Both the position numbers and the translations under genes were made by a program. A stretch of 64,000 nt of DNA. It comes from Vicinamibacterales bacterium. Lineage in GTDB: Bacteria; Acidobacteriota; Vicinamibacteria; Vicinamibacterales; UBA8438. Location: positions 4,564,478 to 4,628,477 of the forward strand of contig OZ242205.1 of NCBI GenBank assembly GCA_965206285.1, read 5' to 3'. Of the stretch, positions 21,867 through 32,800 are shown piece by piece. Each line of letters opens with the position of its first letter. Positions within the stretch are counted from its first letter, which is position 1. The notes below the pieces were generated by a model. That model was given only the letters and a program-made list of their open reading frames with translations, did not search any database and had not been told where the DNA came from.

Positions 21867-22550
21867 CTACCCGTCATCGAGGGCCAGGGCGCCGGTGTAG
21901 ATGGCCATCCCGACGACCGCGTCGATGCCCGCGGCGTCGAGGGCGTCGATCTCGTCTCGCGTGGTGATGCCGCCGGCCGCGGTGACGCGGCGGGTCGTCG
22001 CCGCCGCCACCGCCTGCGCCGCGCCCAGGTCGGTGCCGTTCATCAGCCCCTCCCGGTCCACGTGGGTGTACAGGAACTCGCCGCAGTACGGCTCGAGCCG
22101 GCGCACCGCCTCGACCGCGGTCACCTCGACCGGCTCGGTCCAGCCGCGAATGACGACCCGGCCGGCCTTGCTGTCGACCGCCGCGATGATCCGTTCGACC
22201 CCGACCGCGTCCGCCAGCGCCTGGGCGAACTCGAGGTCCGGCTGGCCGTCCCGGAAGAGGGCCGAGCTGACGATGACCGCCCGCGCGCCGTAGTCGAGCA
22301 CCGCCTCGGCGCGGTCGATCGAGCGGATGCCGCCGCCGACCCGGCAGGGAAGACGTGGCGCGACCCGCCGGACCAGCGCGTCGTTGTCGCCCGACCCCAT
22401 GGCGGCATCGAGGTCGATGAGCTGCACCTTCGGAAACCCGGCGAACCGCGCGACCCACCCGTCGAGGTCGTCGCTCTCGATGGCCAGGCGCTCCCCCTGG
22501 ACGAGCTGCACCACGCGGCCGTTCTTGAGGTCGATGGAGGGGATCAGCAT
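21867..22550 (-). CDS. hisA: ProFAR isomerase
   Basis: 227-aa [34 protein letters not shown] and [12 protein letters not shown] match the HisA (beta/alpha)8 motifs. Confidence 0.85.
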
Positions 22551-23353
22551 GGGGTCGCGGGCGCGCGGGCGGGGCCGTCAGCCGCGCCGACGGGCTTCGG
22601 CAGCCGCACCGGGATGCCGTGCGCGTGCAGATGGGCCTTCAGGTCCTCGACGGCGTGCTCGGCATAGTGGAATATCGAGGCGGCGAGGGCGGCGTCGGCC
22701 CGGCCCGCGGTGAAGACCTCGACGAAATGGTCGAACGTGCCGGCGCCGCCGGAGGCGATGACGGGGATGGGCACGGCGGACGACACCGCTGCCGTCAGCC
22801 CGCAGTCGAAGCCCTGCTTCGTGCCGTCCCGGTCGATCGAGGTCAGCAGAATCTCGCCGGCGCCGCGGTCGGCCGCCTCGCGCGCCCATTCCACCGCGTC
22901 CCGCTCGGTGCCCTGCTGGCCGCTGCGGACGTAGATCTTGAAGCGATCGTCCTCGCGCTTGGCGTCGATGGCGACGATGACCGCCTGGCTGCCGTAGCGC
23001 CTCGCCAGGGTCGTGATCAGCTCCGGCTGGGCGAGCGCCGCGGTGTTGATGCCCACCTTGTCGGCCCCGGCCTCGATCGCGGCCTCCGCGTGGTCCTCGC
23101 CGCGGATGCCGCCGCCGACGCACAGCGGCAGGAATATCTCGCGCGCGACGGCCCGGATCGTCTCCGCGAGTGCCTTGCGCCCCTCGATGGTGGCGGTGAC
23201 GTCGAGGATCACGACCTCGTCGATCCCCTCCCGGTTGTAGCGGCCGGCCAGGGTGGCGGGGTCGCCCGCGTTCCGCAGACCCTCGAAGTTGATGCCCTTG
23301 ACGACGGCGCCGTCCCGGACGTCGAGGCAGGCGATGATACGTTTCGACAGCAT
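22544..23353 (-). CDS. hisF: imidazole glycerol phosphate synthase cyclase subunit
   Basis: Met121 of ORF 22544..23713. [41 protein letters not shown] and ASGGAG are canonical HisF blocks. Confidence 0.9.
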
Positions 23354-23363
23354 GGCGCGCGTC

Positions 23364-24059
23364 TCAGGAGGGCACCCTGCGCAGGAAGTTGCCGAGGATG
23401 CGGAGGCCGACGTCCGACGATTTCTCGGGGTGGAACTGCACGCCGCCGACCGCGCCGCGCTCGACCGCCGCCGCGAACTCGACGCCGTAGCGGGTCGACC
23501 CCACGCAGCTCTCCGTGACGGGGGCGGCGTAGGAGTGCGTGAAGTAGACCTGGTCGCCCTCGCCGACGCCTTCGAGCAGCCACGAGTCGCGGGCGCGGTG
23601 CAGCGAGTTCCACCCCACGTGGGGCACCTTGAACGCGCCGGCGCCTCCGCGGGTCTCCGCGGGACGGCGGCCGGTTTCCGCGAGATCCCCGCTGGTTTCT
23701 GCGGGACGGTCACCCGCTTCCGCCGCGCTCTCCCCGTCGGTGATCAGGCTGCACGTGCCCGGCAGCAGCTCGAGGCCGAGGTGGCCGGGCGCCTCGGCGC
23801 TACCGTCGAACAGCCACTGCATGCCGACGCAGATGCCGAGCAGGGGCCGCTCGCGCGCGATATGGCGCCGGATGGCGGCGCGCCAGTCGGCGTCGAGGGC
23901 CGACGTCACCTCGAAGTTGCCGACGCCGGGCACGATGATGCCGGTCGCCCCCGCGAGATCCGCCGGCGCCGCCGGGGTCGTCACCGGCGCCCCCAGGTGG
24001 CCCAGCGCCTTGCGCACCGATGTCAGGTTCCCGGCCCCGTAGTCAATCAACGCAATCAT
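23364..24059 (-). CDS. hisH: imidazole glycerol phosphate synthase glutaminase subunit, with a ~35-aa internal low-complexity insertion
   Basis: Met55 of ORF 23364..24221. [26 protein letters not shown] (catalytic Cys), KVPHVGWN and FHPEKS. The insertion [37 protein letters not shown] lies before KVPHVGWN. Confidence 0.85.
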
Positions 24060-24077
24060 CGTGCAGCACCCTCGTCG

Positions 24078-24242
24078 CCAGTCCGGAAATCGCCGCCTGC
24101 GGCTCCTCCGCCGCCTTGCGGCGCCGCCCTCCCAACCAACCCGGCTCGGGAGCCGGCGCCTCCCTGCATGAGGCGGCGCCTTCCCTGCACGAGACAGCGC
24201 CTCCCCTGCACGAGGCAGCACCGTCTTCTACGGCGCAGACTC
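24078..24242. repeat. dispersed-family repeat element filling the hisH-hisB spacer; contains a 3 x ~21 nt tandem
   Basis: GTCCGGAAATCGCCGCCTGCGGCTCC..CCCAACCAACCC..three units of GCGCCTYCCCTGCAYGAGRC (24156-24217)..CTACGGCGCAGACTC. It has the same module order as the copy at 29299-29400, in reverse orientation. Confidence 0.75.
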
Positions 24243-24246
24243 GCAG

Positions 24247-24834
24247 CTACAACAACCCCTTGGTGCTCGGCAACTGCTTCGCCATGCGGTCGTCCTTGTC
24301 GCACGCGACCCGCAGCGCCCGCGCGAACGCCTTGAACAGCGCCTCGACCTTGTGGTGGCTCGACCGGCCGTAGAGCACCTTCAGGTGCACGTTGGCCCGC
24401 GCCCCCTGGGCGAACCCCTCGAAGAAGTCGTGCAGCAGCTCGGACTGCAGATCGCCGACGAGCCTGACGCGCAGGCGCAGGTCGACCACCGCGTGGGGGC
24501 GCCCGCTGAGGTCGATGGCCGCGACGGCGAGGGTCTCGTCCATCGGCATGATGAAGTAGCCGGCGCGGTTGATGCCCCGCCGCGACCCGATCGCCTTCGC
24601 GACCGCCTCGCCGAGGGCTATCCCGACATCCTCGACGGTGTGGTGCTGGTCGACGTCGAGGTCCCCGGCGGCGTCGATCTGCAGGTCGAAGGCGCCGTGC
24701 CGCGCCACGAGCTCGAGCATGTGGTCGAGAAAGCGGATCCCGGTGCTGACCGTGTACCGGCCGCGCCCTTCGAGACCCAGCCGGATGGTGATCTGCGTCT
24801 CGGTGGTCCGCCGCTCGATCCGTGCGCGTCTCAT
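24247..24834 (-). CDS. hisB: imidazoleglycerol-phosphate dehydratase
   Basis: 195-aa [33 protein letters not shown] and [19 protein letters not shown] are canonical IGPD motifs. Confidence 0.9.
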
Positions 24835-24961
24835 GGCAGCAGCACCCGGCCGCGTCCACCGTCCTCGGCGCTACGGCGGCGGTGGCGCCGTCCCACGTTC
24901 GGCGGCGGCGATGTGGCCGCCATCCGGGCCAGCGGCGCCGTCCCGGGAGTCGCGATGACCT

Positions 24962-26212
24962 TCATCGGTTCCTGGCCCCGGCCGTGCGCACGCGGACCGA
25001 CTCGGCGTGGGCGGTCAGTCCCTCCGCCTCGGCCAGGGTGAGAATCGTCGGGGCGAGGGTCTCCAACCCCGCCTGCGTGATGCGTTGGGTGCTCTGCACG
25101 GACACGAAGTCCGCCGCGCTGAGCCCGCCGCGGAACCGCGCCGCGCCTCCGGTGGGCAGGACGTGGTTCGAGCCGGTCGCATAGTCGCCGGCCGCCTGCG
25201 CCGCGTGCGGGCCGATGAAGACGGTGCCGGCGCGGGTGGTGCGCGCGGCGACCTCCTCGTCGAGGCACACCAGATGCTCGGGCGCGATGTCGTTGGCCAG
25301 ATCGATCGCTTCGTCGAGCGAGCCGGTGATCACGATGACCCCGTTGCGCTCGATGGACGTGCGCGCGGGTCCGTCCGCGGGCAGTTGGGCCTGGACCCGC
25401 CGGGCGATGCGCGCGGCGAACCGGCGGTCGGGGGTCAGCACGATGGCGCGGGCGTCGGGGTCGTGCTCGGCCTGCGCAATCAGGTCGGCGGCGATCCAGC
25501 GCGTCTCGCCCCGCGCGGCGAGGATGACGATCTCGGTCGGGCCGGCGTGGAAGTCGATGGGGCAGTCGGCGGCCACCAGGGACTTGGCGGCGGCGACCCA
25601 GGCGCTTCCCGGCCCGACGATCTTGTCGACCCGGGGGACGGTCGCGGTGCCGTAGGCGAGCGCGGCGACGGCGTGGGCGCCGCCCAGGCGGAACAGGCGG
25701 GTGACGCCGGCGATGGCGGCGGCGGCGAGGGTCGCGGGGTCCGGGCGCGGGCAGACCGCGATGACCTCGGGCACCCCCGCGACGCGGGCGGGGATCGCGG
25801 TCATCAGCAGCGAGGAGGGCAGCGGGTAGCGTCCGGCGGGGACGTAGCAGCCGACCCGCTGGAGGGGGGTCACGCGCTGCTCGATGTCCACCCCCCCGGT
25901 GACCGTGGTCCGCCATCCCCGCGGCAACTGCCGCCGGGCGATGCGGCGGATGTGGTTCGCCGACGTGCGCAGCGCCGCCCGCAGGTCCGCCGGGATGGCC
26001 CGCAGCGCGGCCTTCGGCTCCTCCTGCGGCACCTCGGCCGGGCCGTCCAGGCCGTCGAACCGCCGCGCATAGCGCAGCAGCGCCTCGTCGCCCGAGCGGC
26101 GAACCGCGCTGACGATCCGGGCGACCCGGCGGGTGAGGGCGGGATCGACGTCCTGACGCCGGTCGATCAGGCGCTGGACGTCCGGGCGATCCGACGCGTC
26201 GATGATCCGCAT
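24962..26212 (-). CDS. hisD: histidinol dehydrogenase
   Basis: Last 416 aa of ORF 24962..26962. VGCYVPAGRYPLPSSLLMTAIPA, IVGPGSAWVAAAK, AGPTEIVI, AQAEHDP and GDYATGSNHVLPT. The start codon overlaps the hisG stop by 1 nt (26212). Confidence 0.9.
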   Translation of the reverse strand: MRIIDASDRPDVQRLIDRRQDVDPALTRRVARIVSAVRRSGDEALLRYARRFDGLDGPAEVPQEEPKAALRAIPADLRAALRTSANHIRRIARRQLPRGWRTTVTGGVDIEQRVTPLQRVGCYVPAGRYPLPSSLLMTAIPARVAGVPEVIAVCPRPDPATLAAAAIAGVTRLFRLGGAHAVAALAYGTATVPRVDKIVGPGSAWVAAAKSLVAADCPIDFHAGPTEIVILAARGETRWIAADLIAQAEHDPDARAIVLTPDRRFAARIARRVQAQLPADGPARTSIERNGVIVITGSLDEAIDLANDIAPEHLVCLDEEVAARTTRAGTVFIGPHAAQAAGDYATGSNHVLPTGGAARFRGGLSAADFVSVQSTQRITQAGLETLAPTILTLAEAEGLTAHAESVRVRTAGARNR

Positions 26213-27117
26213 CAGAGGACGATCTTGTTCAGCGGGAACTCCACGATGCCTTCGGCCCGCGCCGCCTTCAGCTTCGGAATCAGATCGCGCGCCGACGATT
26301 CCTCGATGATGGTGGAGACCGCGACCCACGCGTCGTCGCTGAGGGGGGCCACCGTCGGGTCGTGCAGGGCCGGCAGCAACCCGAGCACCCCGTCGAGCTC
26401 GGCGCGCCGGACGTTCAGCATCAGACCCACCCGGCCCTGGGCCTCGATGGCCGCGCGCAGCAGCAGGGCGATGTTCTCGATCTTGGTCCGCTTCCAGTCG
26501 TCCTGGAGGGCCGCGGGGTTCGCGATCAACTGGGGGTTCGATTCGATGACGGTGTCGATGATGCGCAGCCGGTTGGCGCGCAGGGTCGAGCCGGTCTCCG
26601 TCGCCTCGACGATGGCGTCGGCGAGCAGCGGGGGCTTGACCTCCGTCGCCCCCCACGAGAACTCCACCTTCACCGGCACCTTCAGGCGCTCGAAGTACGC
26701 CTCGGTGACCCGCACCAGCTCGGTCGCGATGGTGGCGCCGGCGAGGTCCTGCGGAGTCCGGTACTTCGAGTCCTCGGGCGCCGCCAGCACCCACCGGACC
26801 TTGCGGAAGCTCTGCTTCGAGTAGATCAGATCCGCGATGTCGACGACCTCGTCGCCGGTGGCGGCGTGATGCTCCGCTATCCAGTCCTGGCCGGTCAGCC
26901 CGGCGTCGAGCGCGGCGTCGGCGACGTAGCGCGCCATCTCCTGGGCCCGGATCAGCGTGCACTCGATCTCGGGGTCGTCGATCGCGGGAAAGTAGGAACG
27001 GGAGCTCGTGTAGATGTTGAAGCCCGAGTGCGCGAACAACTGGATCGTCGAGTCCTGCAGCGAGCCCTTCGGGATACCGAGTCGCAATGTCCTGTCAGCC
27101 ATGTTTCGATGCGTCAA
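26212..27117 (-). CDS. hisG: ATP phosphoribosyltransferase, long form
   Basis: 301-aa [22 protein letters not shown].., [13 protein letters not shown] and a C-terminal regulatory domain (GRVGLMLNV...). Confidence 0.85.
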
Positions 27118-27123
27118 CCGTGG

Positions 27124-27474
27124 TCAGCGGGGAGAAGGGGTCGCGCTCGGGTCGTCCGCGAGACGATCCAGCGTCCGGTAGAAGCAGGTCCGTTCGCCGG
27201 TGTGGCAGACGTTGCCGTCACCGTTGCGGGTGACCCGCAGCAGCACGGTGTCGTCGTCGCAGTCGACGAGAATCTGCTGCACCGCCAGGGTGTTGCCCGA
27301 CGTCTCTCCCTTCATCCACTGCTTGCCGCGGGTCCGGCTGAAGAACGTGGCGAAGCCCGAGCGGCGGGTCCGGTCCAGCGCCTCCTGGTTCATGAAGCCG
27401 ACCATCAGGACCTCGTTGCTCGAGGCGTCCTGCACGACGGCGGGGATGAGTCCGTCCAGTTTCGAAAAGTCCAT
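27124..27474 (-). CDS. hisI: phosphoribosyl-AMP cyclohydrolase (monofunctional; no HisE domain)
   Basis: 116-aa ORF. GLIPAVVQD, MVGFMNQEAL, FFSRTRGKQWMKGETSGN and DCDDDTVLL..G..CHTG. Confidence 0.85.
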   Translation of the reverse strand: MDFSKLDGLIPAVVQDASSNEVLMVGFMNQEALDRTRRSGFATFFSRTRGKQWMKGETSGNTLAVQQILVDCDDDTVLLRVTRNGDGNVCHTGERTCFYRTLDRLADDPSATPSPR

Positions 27475-27548
27475 GTCGTGTCCTGCCGCGCGCCGGCGTG
27501 CGGCTCCGGGCGCGGATCGTCTGTCCGATGTGTCTGCACGCCAGGCTC

Positions 27549-27581
27549 AAAAAAAAAGCCCCGCCGGGTCGTCGGCGGGGC
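27549..27581 (-). terminator. intrinsic terminator inside the his-operon leader
   Basis: On the minus strand: GCCCCGCCG-ACGACC-CGGCGGGGC (perfect 9-bp GC stem, 6-nt loop) followed by nine T. It lies 75 nt upstream of the hisI ATG. This is the only long T/A run of its kind I found in the window. Confidence 0.8.
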
Positions 27582-27618
27582 GGTCGCATGCGTTGGGGTG
27601 ACGGGCAGTCGCGCTACC

Positions 27619-27690
27619 TCACATGCAGATCCGCAGCCCCGCCCCGTGGGCAGTCGGCTGCGCAGAGTGATGGCCATGTTGCCGCGCCAT
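27619..27690 (-). promoter_or_regulatory. candidate his leader mini-ORF (23 codons, 4 His) containing an antiterminator segment
   Basis: The minus strand ATG GCG CGG CAA CAT GGC CAT CAC TCT GCG CAG CCG ACT GCC CAC GGG GCG GGG CTG CGG ATC TGC ATG TGA translates as MARQHGHHSAQPTAHGAGLRICM. The GGCGGGGC within it (27636-27643) is complementary to the 5-prime terminator arm GCCCCGCC. Confidence 0.35.
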
Positions 27691-27701
27691 AATTGTGGAG
27701 T

Positions 27702-27730
27702 ACCCTATCCCACGCAGTCGGACGTGTCAA
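27702..27730 (-). promoter_or_regulatory. sigma-70-type promoter candidate for the his operon
   Basis: Minus strand TTGACA (27730-27725), a 17-nt spacer, then TAGGGT (27707-27702). The predicted start is a few nt upstream of the mini-ORF ATG, so the transcript would be nearly leaderless. Confidence 0.5.
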
Positions 27731-27782
27731 ATGGATGCCGACCCCCGGCCGGGCCTGAGCCGCGAGGTCGTCGCGACGGAGC

Positions 27783-28511
27783 GTGATGCCTGAGAACGCC
27801 GGGTCCGGGACCGCGCGGTGGGTGGCGCTCCACTCGTACAACGTCCGCATCTGTCACTGGATCAACGTCGTCGCCGGGGGCTACCTGCTGTTGAGCGGCA
27901 TCCACATCTTTCTCGATTTTCCCGAGCTCTATTGGGGGCACACCGGCTACCAGGGTTATCCCGCGATATTCCGCCTCGCGGACTGGGGAATCTCCTGGGA
28001 CGAGGCGGGGGCGATGGGGGACCGCCGGTGGGGCCGGAACTACCACTTCACCTTCGCCTGGGTGTTTCTCGTCAACGGACTGGTCTACGCCGGGTGGAAC
28101 CTCGCGACCGGACGCTTTCGCGAGCGCCTGGTGCCGCGCCGGAACGAGCTCACCGCCGCGCATCTCGGGCGCGACCTCCGCGCGCATCTCCCCTGGCGCC
28201 TGCGCGCGCGCGCCTCGGCGACCCGTTACGGGGTGCTGCAGAAGGTGTCCTATCTGCTGCTGCTGGCCCTCTTCGTGCCGCTGATGACGCTGACCGGGCT
28301 CGCGCAGTCGCCCGGCTTCACGGCCGCGATGCCCTGGCTGCTCGACCTGTTCGGCGGCCGGCAGTCGGCGCGGACGCTGCACACCCTCGGCACCGTCGTG
28401 TTCGTCCTGTTCGTCGTCGTGCACGTGCTGGAAGTGGTGGCGGCCGGCGCCGTCAACCGCATCCGTTCGATGATCACCGGGAAGCTCCGGTTGCCCGTGG
28501 AGGAGTCATGA
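27783..28511 (+). CDS. membrane b-type cytochrome (cytochrome b561 / PhsC / YedZ-like haem subunit)
   Basis: 242-aa ORF. Four or five TM helices with conserved His (RICHWINV, YHFTFAWVF, TLHTLGTVVF..VVHVLE). ATGA overlap with the downstream Mo-enzyme gene. Confidence 0.7.
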   Translation: MMPENAGSGTARWVALHSYNVRICHWINVVAGGYLLLSGIHIFLDFPELYWGHTGYQGYPAIFRLADWGISWDEAGAMGDRRWGRNYHFTFAWVFLVNGLVYAGWNLATGRFRERLVPRRNELTAAHLGRDLRAHLPWRLRARASATRYGVLQKVSYLLLLALFVPLMTLTGLAQSPGFTAAMPWLLDLFGGRQSARTLHTLGTVVFVLFVVVHVLEVVAAGAVNRIRSMITGKLRLPVEES

Positions 28512-29895: not shown

Positions 29896-32800
29896 ATGCG
29901 GATGCCCGCGATGGTCCTCGCCGGGGCGGCGCTCATCGCCCCGGCGGCGCCCGCGGTTGGACAGAGGTCTCCCACGGTGGTGGTCGCGCCGTTCACGAAC
30001 GTGAGCCGGCAACCCGCCGATGACTGGATCGGCGCGGGCATCGCCGAGACGATCGCCGTCGATCTGCAGGACGCGCCGGACTGGAGGTCGTCGGACACCT
30101 CGCCATCGCGCCGAAGCGTATCGGCTACCGCGGCGCCGCGAACGCCCCCGACCGCGCGGGCGTCCTCGACGCCTATCACCGACAGGGCGTCGTCTGGATG
30201 ATCGACGGCACCCTGCAGCGGTTGGGAGACGCCCTGCGCATCACCACCCGGATCGTGGACGTCGAGACCGGCGCGGTCGAGTTCGGCACTCGGGTCGACG
30301 GCGGGATAGCCGACATCTTCGGAATCCAGGACGAGGTCGCCTCGGTGCTCGCGGCACGGCTCTCGACGGGTGCGGGCGGCCGGTTCACCCCAAGTAGACG
30401 GCCCGCCCCGGACCGATTCGCCCCGGACCGGTTCGTTCCGGACCGGCCCGTGCCGAACCGACCCCCACCGGGGGTCCGGCCCGCGCCGAACCGGCCCCCA
30501 GCCGGGGTCCGGCCCGCGCCGGGGCCGGTGCCCCCGCGCTTCGTCGCCGCGGTTCCCCCCGCCGCGCCCGAGGCTCGGCCCGAGCGGCCCGTCAGCGGCG
30601 CGCTGGCCTTCGGCGGCGGTTCCGCCGTCCGGCCCGCGCCGGCCGGGGACGCCGCCCCGCGCCCGCCCGTCCGGGGAGGCGGGGGATTCGCCCCGGCCCT
30701 CCTGGGTCGTCCGACCGCGGTCATCGAACGGACCGTCACGCCGCCCGAGATCGACGGCCGGCTCGACGACTCGGTCTGGGAGACCGCCACCCACGTCACG
30801 AACTTCATCCAGATCGCGCCGATCGAGGGCGCGCCGGGGTCGGAGGAGACCGAGGTGTGGATGGCGTACGACAGCGAGAACCTCTACTTCGCCTTCTACG
30901 CCCACTACACGCGGCCCGAGACCATGCGCATCAACCGGGCCGACCGCGAGGAGATCCGCGGCGACGACCGCATGGCGGTCCTGTTCGACCCGTTCCTCGA
31001 CCAGCAGCGCGCGTATCAGTTCGAGGTGAACGGCTACGGCGTGCAGGCCGACTCGCTCGTGAACGCCGACGGCAGCAGAGGGTTCTCGCGGTCGAGCGGC
31101 AGCTCGTCGGCGACCCGCGGCAGCAGTGGCGGCGGCGGCTCGCGGGGCGGCGGCGGCAGCGGAATGGGCAGCTCGGGGCAGTTCGGCGTCCGCGGCGACC
31201 AGTCGTGGGACGCGCTGTACGACAGCGGCGGCCTGGTCGTCGCGGACGGCTGGACGGCCGAGATGCGCATTCCGTTCAAGAGCCTGCGGTATCCGTCGCG
31301 CGGCCGGGGCCAGCCGCACCGCTGGGGCTTCCAGATCATCCGGATCATCCGGGACAAGTCGGAAGCGCAGTCGTGGTCGCCGATCTCGCGGGGGGTGGCC
31401 GGTCAGCTCACGCAGTTCGGCGTGCTCGAGGGCCTGTCCGATCTGTCCCTGAGCCGCAACCTCGAGCTCCTGCCGGAGGTGACCGGGTTCAGGCTCGGTG
31501 CGCTCGACACCGGCACCGGCGAGTACGCCACCAACGACCCGGCCGGGGAGCTGGGATTCGGCGTCAAGTACGGGATCACCCCCAACCTGACCGCGGATTT
31601 CACCGTCAACCCCGACTTCTCCCAGATTGAGTCGGACCGGCCGCAGGTCGAGACCAACCAGCGGTTCGCGCTGTTCTATCCCGAGCAGCGCCCGTTCTTC
31701 CTCGAGGGGCAGGAGATCTTCCAGACCGCGACGCCGCTGACCCTGGTGCACACCCGCACCATCGTCGACCCCCGCTTCGGCGGCAAGCTGACCGGCAAGG
31801 TCGGCCAGGCCACGCTGGGGTTCGTCGTGGCCGACGACGAGGCGGCGGGCCGTCTCGACGACAGCGCCCACCCGCAGTACGGCACCACCGCGCAGACCGT
31901 CCTCGGACGCGCCCGCTACGACTTCTACGCCGAGTCGTATCTCGGCGCCATCATGACCACGCGCGCCAGTTCGGCGCCGACTACAACCGGGTGGCCGGGG
32001 TCGACGGGCGGTTCCGGTTGGGCCGGACCCACCGGATCAGCTTCCTCGCGGCGGGCTCCGAGACGGAGGACGGGGTCCTCGGCTCGCTCTCCGGGGGGGT
32101 GATCGAGGCGGACTTCTCGAAGCAGGGGCGCAACCTCAGCTACAACGTCGCCCACAGCCGCATCGATCCGGGGTTCCTCACCAACACCGGCTTCCTGCCG
32201 CGCGTCGACCTCCAGCAGACCAGCGGCACCGCGTCGTACCGGTGGTGGCCCGAGTCGACCCTCATGACCTGGGGCCCCTCGGTGACCTATCTGCGCCTCT
32301 ACGACCACGCCGGCGTGCTGCAGGACGAGCAGGTCCAGGGCACCGCGAGCTTCTCGTTCCGCAACAACATGGCCATCACCGGCATGGTCAACCGCGACCT
32401 CGAGCGCTACGGGGCGATGGACTTCCGCAAGACGGGCTTCGGCTTTTTCGGGGTCATGAGCGCGCGCCTCCTCTCGATATACGGCGGCTACAACTTCGGC
32501 GACGGCATCTTCTACGACCCGGACAGCCCCTACATCGGGCGATCGACCGTCGGCAACGTCAACTTCCGCTTCCAGCCCACGTCCCGGCTGCGGACGGAGT
32601 TCAACATGGTCTCGAGCGACTTCGTCGATCCGGTGGCCGAGGCCGACATCTTCAACGTCAGGATCTTCCGCACCCGCACCACCTACCAGTTCACCGACCG
32701 GCTGCTGGCGCGCTACATCCTGGAGCACAACACCGCGGCCGCGACCCTCGGCAACAACGTGCTCTTCACCTATCGGGTCAACGCCGGCACCGTCATCTTC

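Follow-up and report, generated by a model that had tools for sequence, protein, structure and literature searches.

A putative histidine-responsive transcription attenuator ahead of the hisIGDBHAF operon in Vicinamibacterales (Acidobacteriota)

What controls transcription into the seven-gene histidine operon of an uncultured Vicinamibacterales bacterium (Acidobacteriota) is the question raised by a short intergenic segment upstream of hisI on contig OZ242205.1, from which a stretch of 64 kb with a GC content of 71% (the window) was analysed. A preliminary description had proposed that this segment is a ribosome-mediated his attenuator, and our analysis supports that proposal through the conservation of the arrangement (77 of 80 species), the frame-specific placement of histidine codons, covariation in the terminator stem and the lack of any matching Rfam family. 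The element is very likely a histidine-responsive leader-peptide (ribosome-mediated) transcription attenuator of hisIGDBHAF, a function deduced from sequence and its comparison, and the module would very probably couple expression of the operon to the supply of charged tRNA-His.

The components lie on the minus strand in the following positions; those of the promoter, the leader open reading frame (ORF), GGCGGGGC and the terminator agree with the preliminary description.

21867-27474, minus strand: operon hisI-hisG-hisD-hisB-hisH-hisA-hisF, from Pfam matches and ORF coordinates
27725-27730, minus strand: -35 hexamer TTGACA, read directly and conserved in relatives
27702-27707, minus strand: -10 hexamer TAGGGT, read directly, with TAnnnT conserved
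27619-27690, minus strand: leader ORF MARQHGHHSAQPTAHGAGLRICM, 23 codons and TGA (27621-27619), with no Shine-Dalgarno (SD) sequence
27667-27678, minus strand: His codon cluster, codons 5, 7 and 8 (CAT GGC CAT CAC), read directly
27646-27648, minus strand: further His codon, codon 15, read directly
27643-27636, minus strand: GGCGGGGC, complementary to the terminator 5' arm
27619-27644, minus strand: predicted antiterminator 5' strand (region 2), GGGCGGGGCUGCGGAUCUGCAUGUGA, ending with the leader stop codon
27573-27593, minus strand: predicted antiterminator 3' strand (region 3), ACGCAUGCGACCGCCCCGCCG, containing the entire terminator 5' arm
27549-27581, minus strand: intrinsic terminator with a 9-bp GC stem, a 6-nt loop and T9, from sequence, fold and conservation
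27475-27548, minus strand: spacer from terminator to hisI, variable, containing the hisI SD (AGGA)

The terminator stem of the window (GCCCCGCCG / CGGCGGGGC at 27581-27558) is perfect and is followed by T9 at 27557-27549, which ends 74 nt ahead of the hisI ATG (27474, minus strand). This T9 is the sole run of A or T longer than six in the 64 kb, the hairpin is the sole strong terminator-like site in a 16-kb scan, and its predicted fold (-22.3 kcal/mol; z = -4.8) was matched by 0 of 200 shuffled sequences; the earlier contention that long T-runs are essentially absent elsewhere and that the terminator is unlikely to be fortuitous therefore holds. Assignment to an upstream co-directional gene was considered and ruled out, since the genes upstream of the leader in the window, a cytochrome b561-type gene and a molybdopterin oxidoreductase gene, are both divergent.

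Relatives were sampled as one genome per species, giving 80 loci from metagenome-assembled genomes of Vicinamibacterales or unclassified Acidobacteriota, with HisI 69-97% identical. A His-rich small ORF and a GC hairpin stand ahead of hisI in all but three of these species (L055, L063, and L064), and a T-run, mostly T9 or T7, is found upstream of hisI in nearly all. In the 300 nt upstream of hisI the three exceptions are without the His-rich ORF and the T-run and keep only a GC hairpin with TTTC or CTCTTTC after it, which suggests that the attenuator has been lost or has decayed. A detector built on the promoter, the His ORF, and the T-run fires in 75 of the 80 true upstream regions as against 8 of 1974 control windows drawn from these loci; the eight control matches may themselves be real leaders, as eight loci have hisI at non-standard coordinates.

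At closer range, at least 22 metagenomic contigs encode a HisI identical to that of the window, and ten of them were compared with the window (alignment A1: window 27465-27790 and L001-L010). Across the intergenic region identity is 95%, with the mini-ORF open in all; strain substitutions fall nearly all in leader codons 2-14, synonymous and non-synonymous alike, and the sequence from GGGGCGGGGC to the T-run (antiterminator and terminator) is almost invariant. Strain indels concentrate in the post-terminator spacer, among them a 14-nt deletion in L003.

The stem itself varies among species in a compensated manner (GCCCCGCCG/CGGCGGGGC or GCCUCGCCG/CGGCGAGGC): 22 sequences carry a double change from C-G to U-A, three have the U-G intermediate, and two other stem pairs show further double changes. 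The orthologues thus support the attenuation proposal, with the mini-ORF and its His codons conserved and compensatory stem changes present. The leader stop codon precedes the stem by 24-48 nt (with two species set aside, by 28-41 nt), and the T-run is 4-211 nt from hisI. Two loci (L060 and L084) have more than 200 nt between T-run and hisI, as against 4-140 nt elsewhere, and may carry an insertion. In six species (L068, L072, L075, L076, L081, and L089) the T-run ends only 4-6 nt ahead of the hisI ATG, leaving no room for a separate his promoter, and across relatives no conserved promoter is apparent in the spacer between terminator and hisI. In the same six species the terminator 3' arm (GGCGAGG) occupies the place where the hisI SD is expected, so that a single hairpin may end transcription and at the same time cover the ribosome-binding site; in the window the hisI SD lies outside the hairpin.

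These comparisons also bear on whether the module is instead a self-contained small gene, encoding a small RNA or a His-rich micropeptide, with the operon transcribed from a promoter of its own. The module does possess its own promoter and an efficient-looking terminator, 74 nt separate that terminator from hisI in the window, and His-rich peptides can bind metals, so a metal binder would be one example of such a product. However, the module always directly precedes hisI in the same orientation, whatever gene lies on its other side; the window's upstream neighbour is kept at only 17 of 72 leader-bearing loci, which indicates that the module travels with hisI. The lack of promoter room in the six species with the shortest spacer, the absence of conservation in the spacer generally, the complementarity of the region after the His codons to the terminator 5' arm, and the character of the peptide, which is unconserved beyond its His run and whose C-terminal half shifts frame over conserved nucleotides, all speak against a self-contained gene, which we consider highly improbable.

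The histidine codons of the leader would provide the specific signal. Leader peptides contain 22.6% His across species, and the figure for the adjacent his enzymes is 2.4%. CAY codons number 436 in the ORF frame and 11 and 48 in the other two (22.6% versus 0.6% and 2.6%), and the ORF frame is the richest in CAY in 76 of 76 leaders. Leader ORFs were selected for at least three His, so the absolute His figure is somewhat inflated, with the frame contrast and the control windows unaffected. Most relatives have 5-9 His in the leader (typical peptides are MTLRQRHHHTHHPATAAGQWTCV, MRSGVHHAHHHHHSRQGGGPVDLRVT, and MFRAQHHHRHHHHSCSGGPVGLHAY), and the copy in the window, whose lineage reads HGHH...H, belongs to the His-poorest of the leaders compared. 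The preliminary description had listed the missing SD sequence, the near-leaderless start, and the scarcity of His codons as weak points; these are largely resolved, the first two being conserved across relatives and the third specific to the lineage of the window.

Codon usage within the leaders is itself distinctive: among the His codons of the leaders (window 27619-27690 and L011-L090), 53% are CAT (231 CAT and 205 CAC), whereas the first 100 codons of hisI at the same loci have 8 CAT and 71 CAC (odds ratio 10, p = 1e-13). The CAT preference could reflect tuning of the sensor by slow codons, or it could serve to keep the 5' end free of structure.

Beyond its His run the leader peptide shows no conservation. 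The 3' third of the ORF is kept as nucleotides (GGCGGGCC.G.GGA.CUGCGYGUGA.GUAG) and is read in frames that differ between species, with the stop codon at one of two overlapping sites in GYGTGAnnTAR (23 species use TGA and 27 use TAR). Because the same nucleotides are conserved while the frame shifts, selection appears to act on the RNA and on the place where the ribosome stops, and not on the peptide.

The leader promoter is conserved as well. TTGAC[A/G/T], a gap of 17-18 nt (17 nt in the window), and TAnnnT are present in 75 of the 76 regions scored (window and 75 relatives), the one departure being GTGACA in L085, and TAGGGT itself serves as the -10 box in 31 of the 76. A generic sigma-70 scan did not call the leader promoter, because TAGGGT fits TATAAT at only three of six positions; the assignment draws on conservation in relatives. 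In the window the leader ATG (27690) is 11 nt downstream of the -10 box, and in 58 of 76 regions the start codon follows the hexamer by 9-10 nt; start codons are ATG in 70 and GTG in 6 of the 76. An SD-like 4-mer precedes 1% of leader ORFs as against 79% of hisI genes. With the -10 box just 9-10 nt away, the ORF would begin at, or no more than about 4 nt from, the 5' end of the transcript. In the canonical bacterial leaderless signature TANNNT is about 3 nt closer to the start than in these leaders (PMC3160421), and the leader ORF is therefore best termed putatively leaderless or near-leaderless.

Between the His codons and the terminator, the preliminary description had pointed to GGCGGGGC as the antiterminator. 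Its complementarity to the terminator arm is confirmed; the candidate helix is not confined to it, though, and extends over about 19 bp through the stop codon (27644-27619 with 27593-27573; duplex energy -33.1 kcal/mol). The pre-terminator segment that contains both strands (27646-27573, 74 nt) is predicted to fold into a single long hairpin of -36.1 kcal/mol. In every lineage the RNA that follows the His cluster, up to and including the stop codon, is able to pair with the terminator 5' arm and the 12-14 nt ahead of it. Across species the predicted helix has a median of 18 bp and -30.7 kcal/mol and extends from a median of 7 nt past the final His codon to the stop; 64 of 73 species have 7-9 nt of the terminator 5' arm tied up in it.

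Two kinds of randomization favour this pairing. Dinucleotide shuffling of region 2 gave a median z of -2.6 (p <= 0.05 in 77% of species; z = -2.9 in the window). Exchange of strands between lineages, analysed with complete-linkage groups and a double-centred interaction term, showed the cognate combination to be better in 11 of 14 lineage groups, by a mean of -2.5 kcal/mol (Wilcoxon p = 0.008), and no derangement was as good; an initial version with single-linkage groups and raw energies had been null, was confounded, and was replaced. By eye, a position beside the conserved core changes between C:G, G:C, and A:U from one lineage to another. These results support the antiterminator without amounting to proof by covariation.

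The proposed sequence of events is as follows. Transcription would start a few nucleotides ahead of the leader ATG, and ribosomes would translate the 23-codon ORF with no SD sequence to guide them. Under a shortage of His-tRNA, the ribosome would stall on the 5' His codons (codons 5-8 in the window, and up to nine His codons in relatives), leaving the RNA from GGGCGGGGC through the stop codon free to pair with the terminator 5' arm and the segment just ahead of it; this antiterminator helix would block the terminator, and RNA polymerase would read into hisI. When His-tRNA is ample, the ribosome would reach the stop codon and sit on the 3' half of the antiterminator 5' strand, so that the helix is blocked, the GC hairpin and U9 form, and the transcript ends 74 nt ahead of hisI. 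We infer the transcription start site, the leaderless initiation, the ribosome stalling, and the response to His from the features described above.

A footprint model (-15 to +12 nt around the A site) is consistent with these steps. Placed at the stop codon, the ribosome masks 12 of 19 antiterminator pairs in the window and, as a median over species, 10 of 18. Minimum-free-energy snapshots taken before the terminator 3' arm is made, in eight lineages, show the antiterminator intact while the ribosome is on the His codons and disrupted once it is at the stop. The stop-codon footprint agrees with the two states put forward in the preliminary description; single-sequence thermodynamic simulations, on the other hand, do not separate the two states.

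Several further results weigh against the attenuator interpretation, or against parts of it. A footprint at the His cluster covers approximately none of the antiterminator pairs, a figure that is partly so by construction, as region 2 was defined as lying downstream of the cluster. When the equilibrium probability of the terminator was computed with a footprint at each codon, the local hairpin nearly always won and the states were not separated; the probability that the terminator 5' arm is paired while the 3' arm has yet to be transcribed discriminated poorly, the 5' arm always finding a partner in this GC-rich RNA. Failure of such equilibrium tests is expected of a kinetic switch in very GC-rich RNA. 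For the antiterminator, complementarity is not above composition in five small, distant lineage groups, and the whole antiterminator segment of the window folds just 1.6 standard deviations better than shuffled sequences. RNAalifold on the full leader alignment recovers the terminator only, with no order-wide antiterminator consensus, and yields no structure at all for the pre-terminator segment; bulges and shifts of register that differ between lineages prevent a single consensus. A helix specified by hand on a MAFFT alignment has 70.3% of its cells paired versus 67.1% when shuffled and a covariation score of 0.115 versus 0.075, but column-wise covariation is modest and a slid control scores higher in covariation; a second hand-specified register was no better than chance. 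A protector pairing completes the list, which minimum-free-energy folds suggest at one place in the window:

27632-27662, minus strand: possible 1:2 hairpin (GCAGCC..CUGCCC / GGGCGG GGCUGC), which would sequester region 2

In shuffles this pairing is at chance level (median z = -0.65 across species; z = -1.3 and p = 0.12 in the window). Finally, the leader of the window has just three clustered His codons, two close strains (L002 and L004) carry Tyr in place of His7, and one species (L013) has Tyr at codon 5.

The scarcity of His in the window lineage and the energetics raise the possibility of a constitutive leaky terminator, or of a general translation sensor (of ribosome availability or growth rate), in which the His codons are incidental or minor in that lineage. 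Its two or three clustered His codons and its tolerance of the change from His to Tyr would fit such a device, as would the greater predicted stability of the antiterminator (-30.7 kcal/mol) over the terminator (-19.9 kcal/mol) and the absence of a supported protector hairpin, by which any failure of translation would give readthrough. Against it stand the frame-specific His enrichment, seen in every leader scored and ten times the background, and the occurrence of the element exclusively ahead of histidine biosynthesis genes. Moreover, two or three regulatory codons suffice in known attenuators, for example the two Trp codons of Escherichia coli trpL, and this alternative is in our view quite improbable.

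With an antiterminator predicted to be more stable than the terminator and no supported protector, a leader that is not translated would probably read through, unlike those of E. coli trp and his. A leaderless start and a two-state design without a protector are plausible refinements of the attenuator, with roughly even chances of being right. The fullest version of the model is more tentative, and we rate it as possible though somewhat short of an even chance: an independently evolved, order-wide Acidobacteriota his-attenuator family that works as a leaderless two-state switch, in which the antiterminator is the default fold, no protector exists, termination occurs only if a 5'-loaded ribosome reaches the stop set by GYGTGAnnTAR, the untranslated leader reads through, and in some species the hairpin also occludes the hisI ribosome-binding site.

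Direct sensing of tRNA-His or of a metabolite, by a T-box, a riboswitch, or a protein-binding RNA with the mini-ORF fortuitous, would also use a terminator and antiterminator, a pair common to all such mechanisms, and the his operons of Firmicutes and Actinobacteria do use T-boxes (PMC9413887). An Rfam scan of the window (E <= 10) found no T-box (RF00230), His_leader (RF00514), or riboswitch and gave weak terminator-hairpin matches only, and the scan of ten His-richer relatives (E <= 1) likewise found no T-box, RF00514, or riboswitch. No family came near its gathering score in the window or the ten relatives; a sub-threshold Thr_leader match on L056 reached 32 bits against a gathering score of 55. 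The preliminary description had named a T-box or other riboswitch match as refuting its proposal, and these scans gave none. The distance from stop codon to terminator end, about 70 nt, is too short for a T-box, and the reading frame is conserved together with its start codon and in-frame His codons, at odds with a fortuitous mini-ORF; direct sensing is thus extremely improbable. A reinitiation-type leader gene was rejected as well, as about 145 nt separate the stop codon from hisI, in place of the 10-15 nt of that type (PMC4833913).

Among systems of the leader-peptide attenuator class (PMC1183508), the gammaproteobacterial hisL (RF00514) is alike in having a His-rich short ORF ahead of the first his gene, a terminator, and an alternative antiterminator, with ribosome stalling on the His codons as the proposed signal (PMC9413887). 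The two share no detectable sequence or structure similarity, however: hisL has seven consecutive His codons, where the present leaders have 3-9 that are interrupted (HGHH in the window); the present leaders have no SD sequence, an ATG 9-11 nt after the -10 box, and a 1:2 hairpin that is unsupported; and the first gene is hisI here and hisG there, in a different phylum. Predicted His leaders of Firmicutes (B. cereus group hisZ/hisS, Peptostreptococcaceae, and Erysipelotrichales) have 3-5 His codons with terminator and antiterminator hairpins and are unmatched by RF00514 (PMC2965389; PMC9413887). They resemble the present leaders in being independently found, lineage-restricted, and RF00514-negative; they differ in phylum, would not be expected to be related in sequence, are not described as leaderless, and stand beside a family that is order-wide in the species sampled.

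For Actinobacteria there is an analysis of leader-peptide attenuation (PMC1262725), and PMC4833913 cites a search devoted to His-containing leader peptides in them. The mycobacterial leaderless polycysteine short ORF (Ms5788A) acts translationally, through SD sequestration and polarity, with no transcription termination (bioRxiv 10.1101/834739). It is alike in that the sensor ORF comes first in the transcript and is leaderless, as may be the case for the His leader; in contrast, the His leader has a canonical intrinsic terminator, which is far upstream of the hisI SD in the window and abuts the hisI start in the six relatives named above. The His leader is also comparable in several respects to E. 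coli trpL, which has few regulatory codons, a ribosome at the stop that blocks region 2, and competition between 2:3 and 3:4 pairing; trpL, however, has an SD sequence and a defined 1:2 pause/protector hairpin, and its untranslated leader terminates, whereas the His leader is predicted to read through.

The seven his genes have one orientation, and their Pfam domains are PRA-CH, HisG with HisG_C, Histidinol_dh, IGPD, GATase, and His_biosynth twice. The hisI product is a monofunctional PRA-CH protein of 116 amino acids, and hisE and hisC are not part of the cluster hisIGDBHAF (21867-27474). Between hisD and hisB there is a non-coding gap of 127 nt (24835-24961), in which a 43-amino-acid ORF was called on one related contig (L005). 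The hisH ORF (23364-24221, minus strand) encodes a glutamine amidotransferase with a low-complexity insert and would have a long N-terminal extension if the first GTG is its start. Elsewhere in the window, a large DUF5916-type ORF (30198-32102, plus strand) has N-terminal Pro/Arg-rich near-repeats (RFAPDRFVPDRPVPNRPPPGVRPAPNRPPAGVRPAPG).

The principle at work is that of a well-understood kind of regulator and is mechanistically unsurprising. What is new is a lineage-specific his attenuator that is sequence-unrelated to known ones and apparently undescribed in its phylum. No description of amino-acid attenuators in Acidobacteriota was found in the literature, of which our coverage was incomplete, and in a 2010 survey almost none of the predicted Acidobacteriota attenuators had an assigned function (PMC2965389). 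Mini-ORF and leader are at present unannotated and have no Rfam model, so that their recognition is a gain for annotation. The element adds a case of amino-acid attenuation that apparently evolved independently of the proteobacterial His leader, and it would point to SD-independent (leaderless-type) translation in Acidobacteriota. With 3 to 9 His codons, two stop frames, and spacers of 4-211 nt, the leaders form a natural series for the tuning of attenuator sensitivity. Acidobacteriota are abundant soil bacteria whose gene regulation is almost uncharacterised, and here a core operon is provided, across an order, with a concrete and testable regulatory element.

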